Origin: Patescibacteria group bacterium
GTDB taxonomy: Bacteria; Patescibacteriota; JABMPQ01
Assembly: GCA_041749335.1 (NCBI GenBank)
Contig: JBGTBM010000010.1
Span: forward strand, 142,039-206,038
Length of the DNA stretch: 64,000 bases
Reading direction: 5' to 3'
The notes below the pieces were generated by a model. That model saw nothing but the letters and a program-made list of their open reading frames with translations, was not told where the DNA came from and searched no databases. Positions within the stretch are counted from its first letter, which is position 1; every line of letters begins with the position of its first letter. The position numbers and the translations under genes are program-made. Of this stretch, positions 1-57,291 are shown in pieces.

Positions 1-1
1 A

Positions 2-1510
2 GATTGGGTCGATAAGTTAAAAAATTGCAAGAAAATTTATATCTGTTTTGATAATGATGAAGCTGGTCATAAAGGAGCTATGCGAGTAGCAGATATGATA
101 TATGAAAATACTGATTGTGAAACATTTAAAATTGATTTACCGGAAGAAGTCGGAGATGGAGGGGATATTACTGATTATTTAACAAAACTTAATGGCAATA
201 TTGAAGACTTATTTAGTAAATATTCAAGGCCTTATCCCGAAAGAATTGATACATCACAATTTAAACCTATTGTATTAAGCGATATTGTTAAGACGCTAGG
301 ATTAACGATTAAAAAAGATGAAACAAATAAAATCATAACTTTCCTATGCGAATTATCTGCATATACTGAAAGTTCCCAGTTTAATATTAGTTTTAACGCC
401 CCCTCCTCTACCGGCAAGTCTTATATACCTACAGAAATTGCACGCTTGTTCCCGGAAAAAGATATTGTCGAAATCGGATATTGTTCTCCTACAGCTTTTT
501 TCCATGATGTTGGAGAATATGATGAGGAAAGAAAAGGATATATTGTTGACCTGTCTAGAAAAATCCTTATCTTCTTAGACCAACCACACACCCAACTTCT
601 GGAAAGGCTAAGGCCTCTTTTATCGCATGATAAGAAAGAAATAAATATTAAAATAACCGATAAGAGCCAGAAATTTGGACTAAAGACAAAAAACGTTCTA
701 CTGAGAGGCTACCCTTCTGTTATTTTTTGTACAGCTGGACTAAGGATAGATGAACAAGAAGCAACACGATTTCTACTTTTAAGCCCCGAAACAAAACAGG
801 AAAAACTTAGAGAAGCAATACAAGAGAAAATTAAGAAAGAATCCGATTCCGCTGCATACAAGGAAGCCCTAAATAACAATCCTGAACGCAAATTATTACG
901 GAACAGAATAATGGCAATAAAGCAGGCAAAGATTAAGGAAATCAAAATCGCCTCCCCCGATATAATCGAGAAAAAAGTCTTAGATAATAAAATGTTGAAA
1001 CCTAGACACGCAAGAGATGTTGGTCGTCTCATATCGCTAATAAAAGCAAATGCTTTATTGAATTTATGGTTTAGGAAAAAGGAAGGATCAACAATTACTG
1101 CCAGTGATGATGATATTGAAAAAGCTTTCAAAATATGGGATTCAATATCAGAAAGTCAAGAATTGAATTTACCGCCATATATTTATAACCTTTACCACGA
1201 AGTTATTATGCCGGCCTGGAAAGAAAAAAACGAAGGACGATCGGAGGGATTTGAAGAAATTACAGGTGAGTTGGGATTATCACGACAAGATATTGTTCAA
1301 ATGCATTACAAAATTCACGGCAGATTTATAGCAGACTGGCAACTTAGACAGCATATAATCCCAATGCTAGAAACAGCGGGATTAATAATGCAAGAGCGAG
1401 ACCCAAGTGATAAACGTAAAATATTAATATATCCTACTCCCCTGTTAAACTCTGCAAATAAGAAAAACAATAGTGAGTCGAGTAGTGGGGTAAATAATTT
1501 AAAAATATGA
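2..1510 (+). CDS. Phage/plasmid-type DNA primase-helicase, 5'-partial (TOPRIM domain plus P-loop NTPase).
   Basis: The ORF is open from base 2 (DWVDKLKNCKKIYICFDNDEAGHKGAMRVADMI is a TOPRIM DxD/E-type motif). Walker A-like NAPSSTGKSY and Walker B-like ILIFLDQ follow. The ORF track starts at the first Met (80), but the frame is open to the window edge. Confidence 0.6.
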   Translation, partial: DWVDKLKNCKKIYICFDNDEAGHKGAMRVADMIYENTDCETFKIDLPEEVGDGGDITDYLTKLNGNIEDLFSKYSRPYPERIDTSQFKPIVLSDIVKTLGLTIKKDETNKIITFLCELSAYTESSQFNISFNAPSSTGKSYIPTEIARLFPEKDIVEIGYCSPTAFFHDVGEYDEERKGYIVDLSRKILIFLDQPHTQLLERLRPLLSHDKKEINIKITDKSQKFGLKTKNVLLRGYPSVIFCTAGLRIDEQEATRFLLLSPETKQEKLREAIQEKIKKESDSAAYKEALNNNPERKLLRNRIMAIKQAKIKEIKIASPDIIEKKVLDNKMLKPRHARDVGRLISLIKANALLNLWFRKKEGSTITASDDDIEKAFKIWDSISESQELNLPPYIYNLYHEVIMPAWKEKNEGRSEGFEEITGELGLSRQDIVQMHYKIHGRFIADWQLRQHIIPMLETAGLIMQERDPSDKRKILIYPTPLLNSANKKNNSESSSGVNNLKI

Positions 1511-1602
1511 CATCCAGTTGCAATACTTTATTTAAGGATTTAGCCAATAAAATCAACAATTTTACGTCTTATCTCTATTAATTTCGGTATTTTAAGAAAA
1601 AT

Positions 1603-2190
1603 ATGGCAAAACCATTAGCAGAACAATCCAATAGTATAAGTATATTTATGCTCAAAAAGTGGGGCTACATAAACTCAAAAGGCGGCCAATCTTGCGGAGT
1701 TTTAACATGGACTTCGTTCGGATATGAAAATAGTATTAATTTTAAGATTATTACTACAAGTAAAGATGAACCAGATGATTGCTATATAAAAATATCTTAT
1801 TCATATTCAGATATTTATAGCGATGATAAAGAATCTCTTGATTATAAAATAGAATTAACCACCACGGAGTGCAATTATGGAGGAACAAGATATTGGTTTA
1901 GATGTCCTTTAATAAGAAATGGTCATGCATGTAATAAACGAGTAGGTGTTTTGTATCAGGCGGGTAAATATTTTGGATGCAGATATTGTGCGGATATTTC
2001 GTATAAATCACAAAGACAAGGAGGTAATTATCGTGAAAGCTCAATAACAATTTATGATATTGAAAATTTTGAAAATGAAATAACAAAATATTATTATAAA
2101 GGAAAGCCAACCAAGAAGCATCTTCGTCTAAAAAAAATGCGAGATAGATTTGAGAAAGATTTTTATATTTCTGTTAGCTTACTTATATAG
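1603..2190 (+). CDS. Hypothetical Cys-rich (Zn-ribbon-like) protein inside the mobile element.
   Basis: CxxC-type pairs (CNYGG..RCP, GCRYCAD). Located between the primase and the recombinase. Confidence 0.4.
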   Translation: MAKPLAEQSNSISIFMLKKWGYINSKGGQSCGVLTWTSFGYENSINFKIITTSKDEPDDCYIKISYSYSDIYSDDKESLDYKIELTTTECNYGGTRYWFRCPLIRNGHACNKRVGVLYQAGKYFGCRYCADISYKSQRQGGNYRESSITIYDIENFENEITKYYYKGKPTKKHLRLKKMRDRFEKDFYISVSLLI

Positions 2191-2236
2191 AATTTGATAC
2201 TTTACTTATAATCAATAAAAAGATATAATATATACG

Positions 2237-2333
2237 TTGACCCACTATTAATAATTTTCCAAGGAATTTTTGTTTGTCGCTATGATGGGCGACTCTGCCA
2301 ACAAACTACTCCTTGGAGTAATAGTTGGGTCAA
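2237..2333. promoter_or_regulatory. ~97-bp nested near-perfect palindrome (TTGACCCACTATT..CCAAGGA..GTCGC-N8-GCGAC..TCCTTGG..AATAGTTGGGTCAA). Candidate recombinase att/res site or operator.
   Basis: Read directly from the sequence. Sits immediately upstream of the serine recombinase start (2368). Confidence 0.45.
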
Positions 2334-2367
2334 CCAGGGTCGTCCTTTTAGTTAATAAGATAAATAT

Positions 2368-3978
2368 ATGAATGAAGACAAACCTAAAATTAAATACTTT
2401 CTTTATACTCGCAAATCCTCAGAGGCTGAAGATAAACAAGTGGCTTCAATTGATTCTCAAATATCAGAATTAAGAAAAAAAGCTAAGCAAGTAAATATTA
2501 AGATCGTAAAGATATTTAAAGAATCTATGTCAGCTAAAGCTCCTGGTCGCCCCGTTTTTAACGAAATGTTAAGCAAAATTCAAAATGGCGAAGCTGACGG
2601 AATTTTGTGCTGGAAACTTGATAGGCTTGCCAGAAACTCAGTAGATGGAGGTCAAATTATATATTTACTGCAAAGTAATATTATTAAAAATATACAAGCA
2701 TATAGTCATAGCTATTATCCTAATGATAATGTTGTCATGATGTATGTTGAGTTCGGTGTAGCAAATCAATTTGTTAAAGATTTAAGCCAAAATGTAAAAA
2801 GAGGCTTTAATTCAAAAGCTCAAAGAGGATGGTTTCCTAACCGATTAACCCTGGGATATATGCACAATCCTAAAGGCTATGAAGATGGTAAGGAAATAAT
2901 CATTGATCCGGATAGCTTTAATGGTTTAAGAGAAGTATTTGATTTAGTTCTCACAGGTAATTATACGGTACCAGAAATATACAAAATTGCTATTAACGAG
3001 CTTTGTCTTAGAAATAAGAAGGGCAAGAAATTTTCACTAAGCACCTTATATAGAATATTAACTGATACATTTTATTATGGAGAATTTGAATATCCAAAGG
3101 GTAGTAGTGATTGGTTTACGGGTAAACACCATCAAATGATAACAGAAGAAGAATATGACAAGATTCAAATCATTTTAGGTAGAAAGGGCAAACCTCGCCC
3201 CAAGACTCATAAATTCGCCTATACAGGCCTTATACGCTGTGGTGAGTGCGGATGCAGTATAACCGCAGAAGATAAAATTAAAAAACAAATAAATGGTAAT
3301 ATACATAGATACACATACTATCACTGCACAAAACGTAAAAAAATACCCTGCTCCCAAAAAAATATAAGAGTTGAAAATTTAGAGAAGCAAATTAAAAATG
3401 TATTAGAAAAAATTGAAATTCCTAACAAGTTTTATCAGTGGGCATTAGATGAATTGCGGGAACGAAATAAAAAAGAATCCATAAATAGAGAAGAATTATT
3501 GTCTACGCAACAAAGACAATACAACAATTGTATCCAGAAAGTAGATAGATTGATTGATATGAGAACTAATGGAGAGCTTACAGAAGAAGAGTTTAAAAAT
3601 AAAAAGAGGGAATTAATAAAAGAAAAGGATAATTTCCAGAAACTTCTCAAAGACACAGACAACCGAGTAGACGACTGGTTAGACAAAGCAGAAGAAATGT
3701 TTAAATTTGCAGAAACTGCTAAATACAGATTTGAAAATGGCACCCTTGAAGATAGAAAGAATGTGCTTTCTATACTAGGTTCGAACCTCTTCCTAAAAAA
3801 CAATATTTTAAGTATACAAGTACAAAAACCCCTATTACTCATTCAAAAAGCCTCTTCTGAGATAAAAGCTTTTTCCAGAATGTTAGAACCTCAAACAATT
3901 GGCTTAAACAAAAGAAAAAAGAGAGCTTCTCGCTCTCAATTTCCTACACTATGGGACGTACAAGAATCGAACTTGTGA
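2368..3978 (+). CDS. Large serine recombinase/integrase (resolvase catalytic domain + recombinase domain + Zn ribbon + coiled coil).
   Basis: N-terminal YTRKSS..SIDSQ..DRLARN resolvase motifs. Zn ribbon CGECGCS..YYHCTKRK. Length 536 aa. Last 27 nt overlap tRNA-Lys. Confidence 0.85.
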   Translation: MNEDKPKIKYFLYTRKSSEAEDKQVASIDSQISELRKKAKQVNIKIVKIFKESMSAKAPGRPVFNEMLSKIQNGEADGILCWKLDRLARNSVDGGQIIYLLQSNIIKNIQAYSHSYYPNDNVVMMYVEFGVANQFVKDLSQNVKRGFNSKAQRGWFPNRLTLGYMHNPKGYEDGKEIIIDPDSFNGLREVFDLVLTGNYTVPEIYKIAINELCLRNKKGKKFSLSTLYRILTDTFYYGEFEYPKGSSDWFTGKHHQMITEEEYDKIQIILGRKGKPRPKTHKFAYTGLIRCGECGCSITAEDKIKKQINGNIHRYTYYHCTKRKKIPCSQKNIRVENLEKQIKNVLEKIEIPNKFYQWALDELRERNKKESINREELLSTQQRQYNNCIQKVDRLIDMRTNGELTEEEFKNKKRELIKEKDNFQKLLKDTDNRVDDWLDKAEEMFKFAETAKYRFENGTLEDRKNVLSILGSNLFLKNNILSIQVQKPLLLIQKASSEIKAFSRMLEPQTIGLNKRKKRASRSQFPTLWDVQESNL

Positions 3979-4024
3979 CCTTCTGCTTAAAAGGCAGCTG
4001 CTCTACCTGCTGAGCTAACGTCCC
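3952..4024 (-). tRNA. tRNA-Lys (anticodon UUU).
   Basis: Cloverleaf folded manually: GGGACGT/ACGTCCC acceptor, anticodon loop CUUUUAA, T-loop TTCGATT. 73 nt, no encoded CCA. Confidence 0.85.
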
Positions 4025-4048
4025 ATATAAATTAAATTATTAATGATT

Positions 4049-4170
4049 CTACGCTGTGACCTTTCCCGCCAAGCGGGACTGCTCCCCGCCTCGCGTCGAC
4101 GAGCGACTGCGAGTCGAGGCGGGTACCTGCTGCCTGCCCGCCGTAGGAGGGGAGCTAACGTCCCATAATA
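4049..4170. repeat. GC-rich (~70%) hairpin-dense element of ~105 bp flanked by a 16-17-nt direct repeat of the tRNA-Lys 5' end (GAGCTAACGTCCCATA at ~4010-4027 and 4153-4168).
   Basis: Sharp compositional island in AT-rich DNA. Hairpins CCCGC-caa-GCGGG and CCCCGCCTCG..CGAGGCGGG. The 5' part of the tRNA is duplicated (GGGACGTTAGCTC). Confidence 0.5.
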
Positions 4171-6081: not shown

Positions 6082-6185
6082 ATTTCATATTAAATAACCA
6101 CGCCATCCTGGGTTTTTTAGTCTGTAAACACAATTATATGCGCTTACATCTCACTGCCTGCCTTAGATGACGTGATATTTATAAT

Positions 6186-50792: not shown

Positions 50793-50917
50793 GCCCTAAT
50801 CAAAAAAACAGCTAACTATTAGCTGTTTTGTTATTAACATATTAAACAATCACACATAGGTGGTAGGAATCCTGCCTGTGATAGGCCGATAAACCCAATA
50901 TGTATATAATAAAACCA

Positions 50918-50988
50918 CAGGGGTGGTAGGAATTGAACCCACGTTACCGGTTTTGGAGACCGGAGTTCTACCACTGAACTACACCCCC
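50918..50988 (-). tRNA. tRNA-Trp (anticodon CCA).
   Basis: Manual fold: acceptor GGGGGTG/CACCCCT, anticodon loop CTCCAAA, T-loop GGTTCAATTCC. Confidence 0.8.
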
Positions 50989-51215
50989 AAAATTAAGCAG
51001 AAGAGCAAGCCTTCAGTCCATGAATTTTTTAAAAATAAGTTTATTTGGTTTCTTTGTGGGCTGTGTGCTTGCGGCACTCCTTGCAATATTTTTTTAATTC
51101 CAATCTTTCTTTAATTAGTTTTTTATTTTTTCGTGAAAAATAATTAACATTATGGCATTCCGTGCATTCAAATTTTATCATATTGTCTTGAGACATATAT
51201 TTTTTAATTAAATTT

Positions 51216-53303: not shown

Positions 53304-54743
53304 CTAGCAGTTGTAGCGCCGCTTGCTGTCGGCGACCTCGCCGAAGGTAGCGATGGCTGCCTTGCGACCATTGCCATCGGCGTAGACCTGGACGTCCTTC
53401 GAGTCGGCATGTCCGAAGCTGAAGCTGTTGCGGGCCTTGAAACCGCGGCCCCGCTGGTTCTGGCTTTTCTTCCCGCCGTTGGTGTTTCCGGACTCGTAGC
53501 GCTCGGCATCCCGCTCGTACTTCTTGGCCACTGCCTTCTCGACAGCGACCGAGAGCGGAGTCGTCCAGGCGTCTCGCTCGTCCTTGCGCGGGACTCCCCG
53601 AAGGATGTTCCCGCAGCGGCTGCAGAGAACCACCGGCTTGTTCTTCACCACCGGCTTCCCCTTGTCGTCGAGAACGACCTGCCCCTTGAGGTTGCCCTGC
53701 TTGTGCACGATCCGCATGGGCTGCCAGGAGATCCACATCTTGGGAAGTGGAATGTCCTCGCCGGCGCGGTTGATGAGAATGACCTTGTCATCCTCGTCTC
53801 GAGCCACGTCAGCCATCGTCCCCCGCTCGGAACAGTGGGGATTGGAGCAGACGTGGACATCCTTGGCATCGACCTTTGGCAGGAAGACGGGCGGACAGTT
53901 GTTCTCGTCCAGCAGGCCGTCGAACAGGTCGCGGGCCCACTGGCGCGAGAGATCGTTCGCGCTCGGTGTTCTCTGATCTTCCTCCTTCTGGTCGCCGGAC
54001 TCCACGTCCATACCGACCATGAAGGCGTCGGCCTGAGACAGAAGCTTCTGCTCGCGCAGGTGCTCCTGCTCCTCACGCCGGAGCCTCTGCTCCTCGGCCT
54101 CCTGAGACATCTTCTGGATCTTCGCTTCCGCCTCCTGCTGCCTGTGCGCCTCTTCGTCCTTGCGCTGCTTGTACTTGCGCTGGGCGTAGGAGAAATCGAG
54201 GAAGATGTCGTCGCGGCCGAAGAATCGCATGAGCTGCGAACGACAGTCGGGGCAGACCGGGAACGGTCCACCGCCATCCTTGAGAGTCAGCAGGCGGGAC
54301 TGGAAGGCCTTCGCGAGAGCGAACTGCTTCTCCTCGAGAGGAGAGCGTTTTCCGCGCGTGATGCGAGTGACCTCCGCCATCTTGGACGGATTCACCGTCT
54401 TCACGCACTCCGGAGTTCCTTCGCTTCCCATCACCATCTCCTTCCCGCAGTCGGGACGAGCGGCGCAGATCACGGTCTTCTCGGGGTCGTAGTCGAGCTG
54501 GCGTTCGGCCGGCACGACCTCGGCCTTGGCTAGGCGCCTCTCTTCGTTTTTCTTGGCCTTGGCGGCGGCTTGAACGCGACGCCTGCAGTGGGAACAGAAG
54601 CCATCGGGATCGTTGTCGTTCCAGTAGTTCTTGCAGGGGTTGCCCCCTTTCGTCACTCCCGGACACATCTTGCCATCGGAACGCTTTGGTGACATCTCAC
54701 ACCTCTTTTTACTTCTTGGTGTTGTGGTTTTATGAACAGACAT
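53304..54743 (-). CDS. Compositionally foreign (~65% GC) gene encoding a Lys/Arg/Glu-rich multi-Zn-ribbon coiled-coil protein of unknown function. Likely start at Met17 (54695), which has the SD AAAGAGGTG.
   Basis: The GC jump is confined to 53230-54700. CxxC pairs (CSHC, CPDC, CSNPHC, CSRC). Long uninterrupted frame, with alternative-frame ORFs typical of high-GC coding DNA. Own terminator downstream. Confidence 0.6.
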   Translation of the reverse strand: MSVHKTTTPRSKKRCEMSPKRSDGKMCPGVTKGGNPCKNYWNDNDPDGFCSHCRRRVQAAAKAKKNEERRLAKAEVVPAERQLDYDPEKTVICAARPDCGKEMVMGSEGTPECVKTVNPSKMAEVTRITRGKRSPLEEKQFALAKAFQSRLLTLKDGGGPFPVCPDCRSQLMRFFGRDDIFLDFSYAQRKYKQRKDEEAHRQQEAEAKIQKMSQEAEEQRLRREEQEHLREQKLLSQADAFMVGMDVESGDQKEEDQRTPSANDLSRQWARDLFDGLLDENNCPPVFLPKVDAKDVHVCSNPHCSERGTMADVARDEDDKVILINRAGEDIPLPKMWISWQPMRIVHKQGNLKGQVVLDDKGKPVVKNKPVVLCSRCGNILRGVPRKDERDAWTTPLSVAVEKAVAKKYERDAERYESGNTNGGKKSQNQRGRGFKARNSFSFGHADSKDVQVYADGNGRKAAIATFGEVADSKRRYNC

Positions 54744-55451: not shown

Positions 55452-55526
55452 ATGTATGTGACCAGTTGGGGAAATATGTGCCGGTTTATTGTCCCCCGCG
55501 TCGCCCATTGCAGTGATGGCGGGTGA
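55452..55526 (+). CDS. Candidate small ORF (24 codons, MYVTSWGNMCRFIVPRVAHCSDGG) with a strong SD (AAGGAGGT-N5-ATG), downstream of the promoter and a structured leader.
   Basis: Found only by manual reading. No homology can be asserted. Confidence 0.2.
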   Translation: MYVTSWGNMCRFIVPRVAHCSDGG

Positions 55527-55638: not shown

Positions 55639-56403
55639 TTATTTATTAAATTTTTCCGAACCATTCCATGACAGCTCAAAAATATATTTCATAGTGTTAG
55701 CAATTTCCTGGCTCTCAATAATAACGCCGATGATTTTACCTTTATAAGTAGCGATAGCTAATTTATTGCAATAAATATTAATTTCAGCCGAAAAAGGAAA
55801 TTTATTTATCGGCACATACCTGCGATCTTTAGTCCCCTCTTTTTTTGGCAAAAAATTTCCCTTTTTGCTGGTATAAATAATTCTTTCCGGAATATTCTTT
55901 AGTTTCCGCGCCATTTCCTTGCGATGATCGGTTGGGCTGGGAGGCAATACTCGATAAACTTCATCCAAAGGAACAATTTGGTCAAGCCTCTCTACTTTGG
56001 ATTTGATCATATCGTCGCGAATTGATCTTAAACCTTCTTTCCCTTCAAAAAATCTCACCTTGGGTTTCTCTCCGCCAAGATTATACATAATATTTAATTC
56101 CGGAATTACATTTTTTATTTCTTCTTCTTTTTGCTTCAATCTAATTTGTTCGTTTTGAAGCAAATCTTTAAATTTTTCCGGAGATTCTGCGGTAAAATAT
56201 CTTTTTTTTCCCTTTTCAAAAGTTGATATTAGGCCTTTTTTCATCAAAGATTCCAATACCACATACGCCGTAGGGCGATTAATTTCCGCCTTTTTGGCAA
56301 TTTCCAAAACGCTGGCATAACCTAATTCCAAAGCTGATAAGTATATTTTTGCTTCTTTTGATTTTAAGCCTAAATTGGTTAGATCTTTGGGCAATATTGA
56401 CAT
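55639..56403 (-). CDS. TrmB-family transcriptional regulator.
   Basis: N-terminal wHTH (LGLKSKEAKIYLSALELGYASVLEIAKKAEINRPTAYVVLESLMKKGL) plus C-terminal TrmB-like domain. Confidence 0.7.
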   Translation of the reverse strand: MSILPKDLTNLGLKSKEAKIYLSALELGYASVLEIAKKAEINRPTAYVVLESLMKKGLISTFEKGKKRYFTAESPEKFKDLLQNEQIRLKQKEEEIKNVIPELNIMYNLGGEKPKVRFFEGKEGLRSIRDDMIKSKVERLDQIVPLDEVYRVLPPSPTDHRKEMARKLKNIPERIIYTSKKGNFLPKKEGTKDRRYVPINKFPFSAEINIYCNKLAIATYKGKIIGVIIESQEIANTMKYIFELSWNGSEKFNK

Positions 56404-56508
56404 GGTATTTATTTATCAAAATTTATAATACGGCATATCTTAGATAATATTATAGCGAATTTATTTATATTTATAATCACCACGTTCTTTTAATTATTTT
56501 CTTGTTCA

Positions 56509-56615
56509 ACCCTGAATCGGCGGTGGGATTCCTAACTGTGGCAATTTTTCGAACCTCTGCCTGCGGCAGACAGGCACGACTTATCCCGCTTAGCGGGTTG
56601 CTCTAGCCGATAGAT
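56509..56615 (-). other. tRNA-like fragment/pseudo-tRNA. It carries tRNA-Thr D-loop (GGCTAGAGCAAC) and T-arm (GGTTCGAA..AATCCCACCG) segments interrupted by GC-rich hairpins (CCCGC-TAA-GCGGG; CCTGTCTGCC-GCA-GGCAGAGG).
   Basis: Manual comparison with the adjacent tRNA-Thr. It does not fold as a canonical cloverleaf. Confidence 0.4.
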
Positions 56616-56659
56616 TGATTACCGTATTGAATATAATTTGCAATTTGCCTTAAATTCTT

Positions 56660-56732
56660 AGCCGACGGTGGGATTCGAACCCACGACCTACTGTTTACAA
56701 AACAGTTGCTCTAGCCGCTGAGCTACATCGGC
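56660..56732 (-). tRNA. tRNA-Thr (anticodon UGU).
   Basis: Manual fold: GCCGATG acceptor, D-arm GCTCAGCGGCTAGAGC, anticodon loop TTTGTAA, T-loop GGTTCGAATCC. Confidence 0.85.
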
Positions 56733-56735
56733 ATT

Positions 56736-56818
56736 TGGGCCGGGCAGGACTCGAACCTGCGTAGGCCGAAGCCATCAGATTTACAGTCTGACCCAGTTGA
56801 CCACTTTGGTACCGACCC
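56736..56818 (-). tRNA. tRNA-Tyr (anticodon GUA), type II long variable arm.
   Basis: Manual fold: GGGTCGG acceptor, anticodon stem TCAGA/TCTGA with loop CTGTAAA, variable hairpin, T-loop GGTTCGAGTCC. Confidence 0.8.
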
Positions 56819-57291
56819 ATCTTATAAATTTTTAATAAACCCGCCACCGGATTTAAGCCCGCGACTTTTCCCTGTCTAAAATATAGCTCTGAATTAGTAA
56901 AAATCAGAGTCAGTTCTAGAAAAATGTTGTTAGTTATTAACACAATTAAATCTAACATATATAATTAAGCGCATCAAGAGAAATATAATTATTATTTAAT
57001 ATGAAATATTTTAAGATAGAAAGTTTTTTAGATTAATAAACATAAAATTGTTTATAAATTTTGCCATGTATTTATTGTTTGCGGTTGTTTTATCATACCA
57101 CTCCTAATATTCCTACTCTTGTATTACAATAAACCAAATATTTTCAGTATTTATAAATGTTTTCAACTTAAAAAATATAAATGCGCTCGCCATTATTAAA
57201 TTGTTTACCCGATAAACCTAGATATTGTTTTAATAAAAGTATTATGTTTTAATAAAAGTAAAAGTTATTCACACTTTTTAAAAATTAAGTC

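Follow-up and report, generated by a model that had tools for sequence, protein, structure and literature searches.

The 64-kb stretch of Patescibacteria DNA analysed here (the window) contains six tRNA genes called by ARAGORN and Rfam, among them a tRNA-Thr(UGU) gene on the minus strand that is accompanied, 48 nt downstream (3') in its own orientation, by a same-strand segment built of tRNA-Thr-like pieces and GC-rich hairpins. Judged from its sequence, this segment, hereafter the Thr copy, is a dead duplicate of the tRNA-Thr(UGU) gene beside it; it is not a functioning tRNA, and it is not an intron either. The features of the locus are the following.

56516..56611, minus strand: disabled copy of tRNA-Thr(UGU), corresponding to tRNA positions ~14-72 and altered by replacement or insertion at three places (alignment; homologues in the relatives L083, L100/L101 and L085)
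56585..56597, minus strand: palindromic module CCCGC-TAA-GCGGG, which together with flanking bases occupies the anticodon-arm site
56556..56574, minus strand: hairpin-forming 19-nt GC insert, which interrupts the 5' strand of the T stem (GTG/GG)
56531..56547, minus strand: 17-nt T-loop insert AAATTGCCACAGTTAGG, recognized by sequence comparison with tRNA-Thr
56660..56732, minus strand: intact tRNA-Thr(UGU), source or partner of the disabled copy (ARAGORN; Rfam, 74.3 bits)
56735..56819, minus strand: intact tRNA-Tyr(GUA), 2 nt upstream of tRNA-Thr and presumably in a common transcription unit with it (ARAGORN, Rfam)

A disabled copy of tRNA-Thr

Read on the minus strand from 56611 to 56516, the copy runs ATCGGCTAGAGCAA / CCCGC-TAA-GCGGG / ATAAGTCGTG / CCTGTCTGCCGCAGGCAGA / GGTTCGAA / AAATTGCCACAGTTAGG / AATCCCACCGCCGAT, and a decayed 5' extension reaches ~56625. 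The pieces collinear with tRNA-Thr are CGGCTAGAGCAAC (13/13 identical), AaGTCGTG, GGTTCGAA and GAATCCCACCG (11/11), and a gapped local alignment of copy and gene scores 52.6, compared with 27.1 +/- 4.3 (maximum 42.5) for 1000 shuffles, none of which scores as high (0/1000; z = 6.0). The 17-nt anticodon arm has been exchanged for the 16-nt sequence A-CCCGC-TAA-GCGGG-AT, and a second hairpin (hairpin 2), CCTGTCTGCC-GCA-GGCAGAGG, occupies 56574-56554. On these sequence grounds, derivation from tRNA-Thr is established, as is the inability of the copy to act as a tRNA. The copy is identical in an independent assembly (L001) and is therefore not an assembly artefact.

An initial annotation of the window had recognized the tRNA-Thr-like pieces, the hairpins and the 17-nt insert on the same strand, all of which stand, while placing the segment 45 bp upstream of tRNA-Thr, on what is in the tRNA's orientation the wrong side. 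It had also judged a cloverleaf impossible, and indeed the anticodon arm is now a stem with a 3-nt loop, and neither ARAGORN nor Rfam calls a tRNA in the copy, even at E <= 10; at that threshold no Rfam family of any kind matches it, and the weak YrlA and mascRNA matches in the window fall on real tRNAs. The 6-bp pairing ATCGGC/GCCGAT, taken at first for a possible acceptor stem, is present, but it is kept only through G-U pairs in L083 and is missing from L100/L101; because it is not conserved, and because ATCGGC is the D-loop sequence AGCGGC with one change, it is probably incidental. The idea of intron-like inserts fails: the inserts are 13-39 nt long, no RF00028 (group I intron) match occurs in the window, and since the anticodon is gone from the copy, nothing could be spliced into a tRNA. 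The covariance scan and the check for split or permuted tRNAs that had been proposed returned no tRNA and no complementary half in the window, the copy being without an anticodon loop. An intrinsic terminator as the identity of the palindromes was ruled out, no T run following them.

As for the inserts, no source within the window was found by short-word BLAST. The motif CCCGCNNNGCGGG occurs twice in 64 kb where 0.04 occurrences are expected, and both lie inside tRNA-like copies adjoining their cognate tRNA.

The tRNA-Thr locus in relatives

Homologous loci were gathered through the TrmB-like regulator encoded directly downstream of the Thr copy, a gene widely conserved in the phylum, and were graded by TrmB amino acid identity. 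By its AtpB relatives the window belongs to Candidatus Magasanikbacteria (Patescibacteria), and 80 Patescibacteria loci collected by AtpB served as an unbiased background set; synteny through the atp operon was of no help, tRNAs lying at that place in 0/15 of the closest AtpB loci. The Thr loci compare as follows.

L083 (TrmB 98% aa): the same element, with module loop CAA and both T-arm inserts strongly different
L100/L101 (TrmB 95%): near full-length disabled copy, TCCGATAGTAAAGCTATAGGACAGGGCAA-TCCCGC-CAA-GCGGGA-TAGGTCGCGGGTTCGAATCCTACCGTCGGCT, with an uninterrupted T arm free of inserts
L082 (TrmB 87%): empty site, Thr(GGU)-Tyr-Thr(UGU), with the TrmB gene ~70 nt on
L084 (TrmB 70%): decayed 5' piece of a GCCGCCT-type tRNA-Thr directly upstream of an intact GCCGATG-type gene
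L085 (TrmB 69%): the reverse of L084, an intact GCCGCCC-type gene flanked on both sides by pieces (5' and 3') of a GCCGACG-type one

Between the window and L083, the tRNA-derived pieces and the module are 92-100% identical, against ~80% in the flanks; the 5' arm of hairpin 2 is destroyed in L083, and the T-loop insert at the same place reads TTGGCCTGCCCCAACCAGG. In L085 (511-601), 7-nt arms, TCCCGCC/GGCGGGA, bracket the intact tRNA inside an older disrupted copy, and a perfect palindrome, CCTGCCTGCCGGCAGGCAGG, stands at the T-stem site of the window's hairpin 2. From these alignments it follows that the inserts were gained stepwise between close relatives, the palindromic module being the oldest common feature of the locus and the T-arm inserts later additions, and that one tRNA-Thr allele was repeatedly replaced by another. 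Simple decay of an ancestral tRNA by point mutation, which the initial annotation had named as the observation that would speak against its view, has no counterpart here: no relative carries a point-mutated tRNA lacking the GC insert at this site, which is empty in L082 and bears the palindrome in L083 and L100/L101.

A sister element at tRNA-Lys

The window holds a second such element, a partial copy left beside an intact gene, which we call an orphan.

4055..4164, minus strand: 5' orphan copy of tRNA-Lys(UUU), positions 1-52 (z = 6.4; relatives L105 and L103)
3951..4025, minus strand: intact tRNA-Lys(UUU), 29 nt downstream of the orphan (ARAGORN, Rfam), with a terminator-like site at 3937-3921

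The orphan begins with GGGACGTTAGCTC, identical to the tRNA-Lys 5' end in 13/13 positions, and continues with a 20-nt GC insert (4151-4132), the D loop AGCAGGTA, a 39-nt insert (4123-4085) containing a CCCGCC...GGCGGG palindrome, and GAGCA. Its anticodon arm is GT-CCCGC-TTG-GCGGG-AA, 17 nt for 17 nt, with the module at 4077-4065, and similarity to tRNA-Lys stops after AGGTCACA.

Two relatives supply what appear to be its components. In L105, whose neighbour protein is 76% identical (aa), a tandem pair of 82-nt orphans that have the window-type junction but lack D-arm inserts precedes an intact tRNA-Lys and a 3' remnant. About 1.4 kb further on lies an intact open reading frame (ORF) for an 81-aa GIY-YIG protein, and after it come another 3' remnant resembling tRNA-Lys and a duplicate of the tRNA terminator. 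In L103 (82%), the orphan carries the window's 39-nt insert and is cut in the anticodon loop, and directly after tRNA-Lys stands a 67-nt remnant of an L105-type nuclease gene with an in-frame stop. With its inserts removed, the window's orphan, together with a 30-nt AT-rich junction, matches L105 at 79/81 positions, and the 39-nt insert (insert 2) matches L103 at 37/39; the window element is thus an L105-type orphan with an L103-type insert. By comparison, DNA identity is 73-76% for dnaJ and the ORF next to it, and ~57-60% for adjoining spacers. The 98% identity of this block against ~75% in flanking genes, and its allele mosaic, indirectly suggest that it is younger than its surroundings, as would be expected of a homing or converting element, strong purifying selection being the alternative.

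That alternative would make both elements functional tRNA-like RNAs, structured leaders or trailers acting for example as a decoy or as a processing or regulatory element whose anticodon arm is closed by a 7-bp stem and triloop. The block identity just described favours it, as do the length-preserving exchange (17 for 17 nt), the conservation of the tRNA-derived pieces and module in L083 beyond that of the flanks, and the probable co-transcription of the Thr copy with tRNA-Thr, since no terminator separates the two and no terminator-like site was found in 56300-57050. A functional RNA would not, however, be expected to be absent from L082, to have T-arm inserts that differ or are lacking among relatives at 95-98%, with hairpin 2 broken in L083, or to vary from locus to locus in the end at which it is cut short; conservation is lacking in the closing stem, the module is found in either orientation, as fits a DNA palindrome, no Rfam family matches, and folding gains only slightly over shuffles (z = -1.9 and -1.6; -1.9 for the Thr copy). 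We regard this explanation as improbable.

The tRNA-Lys end of the window also bears on a scar of another kind, the attL/attR trace of an integrase-type element that entered a tRNA gene and duplicated part of it, a known and common source of partial tRNA genes (PMC9897764). A large serine recombinase ORF (Resolvase, Recombinase and Zn_ribbon_recom domains) at 2368-3978 (plus strand) ends 28 nt inside the 3' end of tRNA-Lys, and an integrated element carrying it probably extends leftward past the window start; no tRNA-Lys 3' fragment was seen in 1-3950. Yet the Lys orphan derives from the 5' part of the tRNA and does not lie on the recombinase side, the 48 nt that separate the Thr copy from its tRNA hold neither an island nor an integrase, the stretch from tRNA-Thr to tRNA-Trp is free of integrases, the neighbours being conserved host genes, and such scars are exact repeats rather than copies with replaced anticodon arms. 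An integrase scar is accordingly very unlikely.

Nuclease genes between orphans and intact tRNAs

The order 5' orphan, GIY-YIG ORF of 81-92 aa, intact tRNA recurs in seven loci of two phyla (two in L036, and one each in L092, L093, L098, L112 and L115). In L036 it is seen at tRNA-Met and at tRNA-Asp, and in L092, L093 and L098, at tRNA-Lys, a ~255-nt stretch encodes the protein under genetic code 25 (TGA = Gly). The four ORFs scanned with PF01541 gave E = 1.6e-14 to 5.6e-11, while the assignment of the L112, L115 and L105 ORFs comes from precomputed Pfam matches. In L036, L092, L093 and L098 the ORFs abut the intact tRNA or enter its first bases. A reading of the stretch upstream of tRNA-Lys(CUU) in L093 as a leader peptide with three AAG codons was dropped, the correct frame under code 25 being that of the GIY-YIG ORF.

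A test independent of the motif, the look-up of homologues of the L105 nuclease, led to the same layout in L115 (Ignavibacteriaceae), where the nuclease ORF stands between a tRNA-Ser(UGA) 5' orphan, which contains TCCCGC-TTT-GCGGGA, and the intact tRNA-Ser downstream, and in L112 at tRNA-Ser(GCU), where the orphan bears TCCCGC...GCGGGA and CCCCGC-TAC-GCGGGG.

The arrangement in L093 comprises in order a promoter, the 5' copy, the ~255 nt, the intact tRNA, a terminator and three 111-nt tandem units, each made of a 3' copy and a terminator. L093 (5100-5910, minus strand), like L088, L092, L086 and L098, is of low GC content (0.28-0.39), with a tRNA-Lys(CUU) 5' orphan, the GIY-YIG ORF, the intact tRNA and up to three 111-nt units. 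The palindrome loop is flipped between units, TAAA against TTTA.

Palindromes in other orphans and away from tRNAs

Metagenome contigs were scanned with the pattern GAGCAR-N0-1-CCCGC-N3-7-GCGGGA-WARGTC, which fits both window elements and matched 14 loci. Each low-GC match (8/8) falls in a disabled copy, of tRNA-Lys(CUU) or of tRNA-Asn, that adjoins its intact cognate gene: tRNA-Asn(GUU) 5' copies with AT-CCCGC-TTA-GCGGG-AT in L089 and L091, and tRNA-Lys(CUU) copies with T-CCCGC-TAAA/TTTA-GCGGG-A in six loci. The six high-GC matches (L090, L094-L097 and L099; GC 0.55-0.70) were judged to be chance, no tRNA similarity being noted in their flanks, and a scan of viral contigs for the module in a tRNA context gave no match. 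A k-mer screen of the 1.39 Mb of collected sequence brought out more orphans in loci not chosen by the motif, the richest being L036, with two tRNA-Met orphans and one tRNA-Asp orphan; the latter has a CCCGCC...GGCGGG palindrome at the D-loop/D-stem border, the site of the window's 39-nt insert.

Across these distant lineages, the module is shared by disabled Lys, Asn and Thr copies and by the D loop of a tRNA-Ser orphan. Whether the copy is of Lys(UUU), Lys(CUU), Asn or Thr, the module takes the place of an identical 15-17-nt part of the anticodon arm, with length kept. The module's loop is TAA in the window's Thr copy, CAA in L083 and L100, TTG in the window's Lys orphan, TTA in L105 and in L089/L091, TAAA or TTTA in L093 and TTT in L115. 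Since TTG/CAA, TTA/TAA and TAAA/TTTA are complementary, the palindrome occurs in both orientations, which fits an element acting at the DNA level better than an RNA loop motif.

The supposition of the initial annotation that there is a family of GC-palindrome-bearing partial tRNA copies near tRNA genes was right, both in this lineage and well beyond it. Its description of them as small repeats that target tRNAs is too simple, as in the better-preserved loci they are tied to a mini GIY-YIG gene, and the palindromes are also found away from tRNAs.

The inserts resemble repetitive extragenic palindromes (REP), miniature inverted-repeat transposable elements (MITE) or GC clusters in being short, GC-rich, palindromic, multi-copy, present in both orientations and variable among close relatives; no transposase of the RAYT type was seen among the scanned ORFs of the 64-kb window, where no search was aimed at a mobilizing enzyme. 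Another explanation of the Thr copy is a plain tandem duplication of tRNA-Thr followed by decay, in which REP/MITE-like mini-palindromes settled in dispensable hairpin-forming DNA and no cassette was ever present. The second copy of L100/L101 is near full-length rather than a clean fragment, the inserts accumulate stepwise, the same palindromes lie in non-tRNA intergenic DNA of many Patescibacteria loci, and six-frame hidden Markov model (HMM) searches, blastn and tblastn found no GIY-YIG gene or remnant at the Thr loci of the window, L083, L084 and L085 (L100/L101 being too short upstream), all of which agree with it. Duplication and decay do not account, however, for a module set with preserved length at the same 15-17 nt of the anticodon arm of four tRNAs, for the position of both window copies of CCCGC-N3-GCGGG inside orphans, for the occurrence, in two phyla, of these palindromes in 5' orphans that immediately precede GIY-YIG ORFs, or for the alternation of allele types in L084/L085. 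On balance we hold it to be unlikely, if less so than the functional RNA.

Several further arrangements occur in the collected loci. In L036 (4550-5170) and L035 (9200-9620), nested tRNA-Thr(CGU) sequences comprise several 5' halves ending at position 35, 3' halves starting from 36 and one intact gene, and the junctions form inverted repeats, CCCCGTCGAATC / GATTCAACGGGG; a bulge-helix-bulge or split-tRNA reading of the L036 halves was rejected on inspection, a 4 x 3 internal loop having unsuitable geometry. At 15445-15625 of L036, an older, disrupted copy encloses a whole tRNA gene that is intact and flanked by the GC-rich inverted repeats GCCCGCACTAAATTT/AAATTTAGTGCGGGC. L029 (18771-18948) has a group I intron (RF00028, 54.4 bits) beside a tRNA cluster with tRNA-Met and tRNA-Asp 5' orphans and then GC hairpins. 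Tandem double hairpins, TCCGCC-N3-GGCGGA with TCC(C)GC-N3-GCGGGA, stand directly after atpB in L026 (10879-10906) and L035 (10860-10890), and others of the TCCGCC/TCC(C)GC kind occur in L069 (5133-5160) and L045 (1213-1240). Small GIY-YIG genes in L043 and L065 are flanked by palindromic repeats of the GTCATTCCGAGC.../...GGGATGACA type.

Proposed interpretation as the scar of a cassette

By these comparisons, the Thr element is one of a set of recurrent scars at tRNA genes of Patescibacteria and of at least one Ignavibacteria genome. We propose, with a probability of roughly 0.55, that it is the scar of a free-standing cassette of the homing-endonuclease type that invades and restores tRNA genes. 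In this proposal, a selfish cassette built around a GIY-YIG nuclease gene of 81-92 aa would break a tRNA gene, and repair would copy the cassette in together with a replacement for part or the whole of the tRNA, so that the cell would keep an intact tRNA while the displaced part or older copy would stay alongside as an orphan. The orphans would bear short GC palindromes, typically T-CCCGC-N3/4-GCGGG-A exactly at the anticodon arm and otherwise at the D-loop/D-stem border, the T stem or the T loop, and later loss of the nuclease gene would leave an intact tRNA and a palindrome-bearing orphan, as in the window. The GIY-YIG protein presumably cuts tRNA genes and drives homing; with no nuclease gene surviving at any Thr locus, the nuclease step there, and with it the former presence of such a gene, is something we infer.

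The GC palindromes are a regular component of the orphans, and their role may be one of several. They may serve the nuclease as a site of recognition or immunity, may mark where an inserted segment carrying a tRNA ends, to which L085 and L036 would correspond, or may be a device by which recombinational loss of the cassette yields a dead tRNA; they may also be independent mini-repeats settling in dispensable hairpin-forming DNA.

A number of observations weigh against the cassette. No GIY-YIG gene or remnant was found in the whole window or at the Thr loci examined, and the GIY-YIG proteins consist of the catalytic domain alone (81-92 aa), their tRNA-gene-specific homing being a proposal. The ORF of L106, closely homologous to the L105 nuclease and preceded by CAGGCAG-type hairpins like the window's hairpin 2, has no called tRNA nearby, and the same holds for the small GIY-YIG genes of L043 (5517-5834) and L065 (16844-17146), which are apparently of a different type (weak HMM scores). 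CCTGCCTGCCGGCAGGCAGG, TCCGCC-N3-GGCGGA and TCCCGC-N3-GCGGGA also occur in non-tRNA intergenic DNA of many Patescibacteria loci, for example directly after atpB, so they may have come to lie in orphans without any involvement of the nuclease. An intact tRNA beside a nuclease gene should itself be a target, and the proposal does not account for its escape; that the Lys orphan block is so strongly conserved might, finally, reflect a function instead.

We further entertain a wider claim, tentative and in our estimation rather doubtful, that the ~85-aa GIY-YIG protein and T-CCCGC-N3/4-GCGGG-A would together form an undescribed selfish cassette that targets tRNA genes (Lys, Thr, Asn, Ser, Met, Asp), restores them by partial duplication, moves laterally between Patescibacteria and to other phyla, and exchanges resident tRNA alleles time after time; the palindrome would then serve this nuclease itself as a site of recognition or immunity, or else would mark where the tRNA-carrying insert ends.

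Relation to known systems

GIY-YIG homing endonucleases are known from phage tRNA clusters, where the T4 enzyme SegB (PMC2330249) also drives segmental amplification (PMC13096335). As with SegB, whose spread is thought to proceed by cleavage of a nuclease-free allele and repair with co-conversion of the flanks, a GIY-YIG gene lies among tRNA genes without an intron, and tandem amplification of tRNA segments has its likeness in the 111-nt arrays of L093 and the 82-nt tandem orphans of L105. Unlike SegB, the gene is here wedged into a cellular tRNA gene that is restored by a duplicated part, the orphans carry GC palindromes, and the putative nucleases, at 81-92 aa, have no separate DNA-binding domain. 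Free-standing nuclease genes can also fracture host genes (PMC2677866), and there as here the host gene is interrupted while its function is kept; fractured genes, however, keep function at the protein level by split inteins, whereas here part of the tRNA is duplicated and one intact copy stays.

Integrative elements, and also the uptake of CRISPR spacers, are known to leave partial tRNA genes behind (PMC9897764). Those left at att sites share with the orphans their nature as by-products of mobile DNA, near the intact gene or at a distance from it, and differ in that the orphans have no integrase or island between, include both 5' and 3' copies, and bear the anticodon-arm palindrome and further GC inserts. 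Patescibacteria tRNA genes carry group I introns at 35/36 (PMC13011429), which recall the present elements by phylum and by their anticodon-loop target, the tRNA-Thr(CGU) halves of L036 being broken at 35/36; in contrast, no RF00028 match falls on the elements, the inserts are far too short, and with the anticodon lost, splicing cannot restore the tRNA. GC-rich palindromic mini-elements of AT-rich mitochondrial genomes in yeast (PMC4478555) are likewise described as short GC palindromes of variable presence, found in both orientations in non-essential DNA of an AT-rich genome; the present inserts differ by their bacterial host, much shorter length (13-39 nt), defined tRNA positions and association with GIY-YIG genes. 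In the literature, where the set of full texts searched was incomplete and an earlier description is possible, no account was found of cellular tRNA genes that house a mini GIY-YIG gene, nor of palindromes at the anticodon arm.

If the cassette is real, a minimal, intron-free nuclease cassette would be steadily attacking tRNA genes of ultra-small bacteria, a cellular counterpart to the phage "intronless homing" at tRNA clusters, and it would account for the orphan pieces, the nested halves and the tandem arrays by which the annotation of their tRNAs is confounded. It would also bear on lateral replacement of tRNA alleles where tRNA genes are single-copy, and would offer biochemistry a very small nuclease with a defined 13-15-nt palindrome. 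From the window alone the message is more modest: the Thr element is to be regarded as a relic and not a gene, and should be annotated neither as a tRNA nor as an intron.

Other features of the window

Two further tRNA remnants had escaped the initial annotation.

56838..56897, minus strand: decayed tRNA-Thr(GGU) pseudogene upstream of tRNA-Tyr, point-mutated and without a GC insert
50859..50896, minus strand: probable tRNA-Trp 3' remnant, GGGTT, a 21-nt insert containing CAGGCAGG, and ATTCCTACCACC (12-nt exact copy; weaker support, z = 2.9)

The pseudogene aligns locally with the tRNA-Thr(GGU) of L082 at a score of 44.5 (shuffle maximum 34), and L082 and L084 have an intact tRNA-Thr(GGU) at its place. 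The tRNA-Trp remnant lies ~20 nt downstream of the intact tRNA-Trp (50917-50989) and has the CAGGCAG motif in common, which matches 14 times in the window against 2.96 expected, three of the matches being inside the three orphans (~0.4% of the window).

Three GC-rich elements had been proposed for the window, of which the two at tRNA-Thr and tRNA-Lys belong together; the third (55494-55523) does not, being unlike a tRNA and having a GCGGG arm that is not kept in relatives. It is enclosed by a conserved 24-codon ORF (55452-55526, plus strand) with a strong Shine-Dalgarno sequence, which encodes MYVTSWGNMCRFIVPRVAHCSDGG followed by a stop and whose C-terminal ...PRVAHCS(D/E)GG is kept in L082 and L083.

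Downstream of the Thr copy, the genes for the TrmB-like, 479-aa and 634-aa proteins are host genes conserved in L082. The 479-aa Cys-rich ORF (53304-54743, minus strand) has 61% GC in a genome of ~37% GC and a long frame also on the opposite strand, with no Pfam or PHROG match; a foreign island was ruled out by its conservation in L082 (51% aa identity), and it is therefore a host gene whose composition is unusual, not one that was imported recently. In the dnaK-dnaJ spacer (6140-6170), a small hairpin, CATCTAAGGCAGGCAGTGAGATG, contains CAGGCAG and may be another mini-repeat of the CTGCC/GGCAG type.

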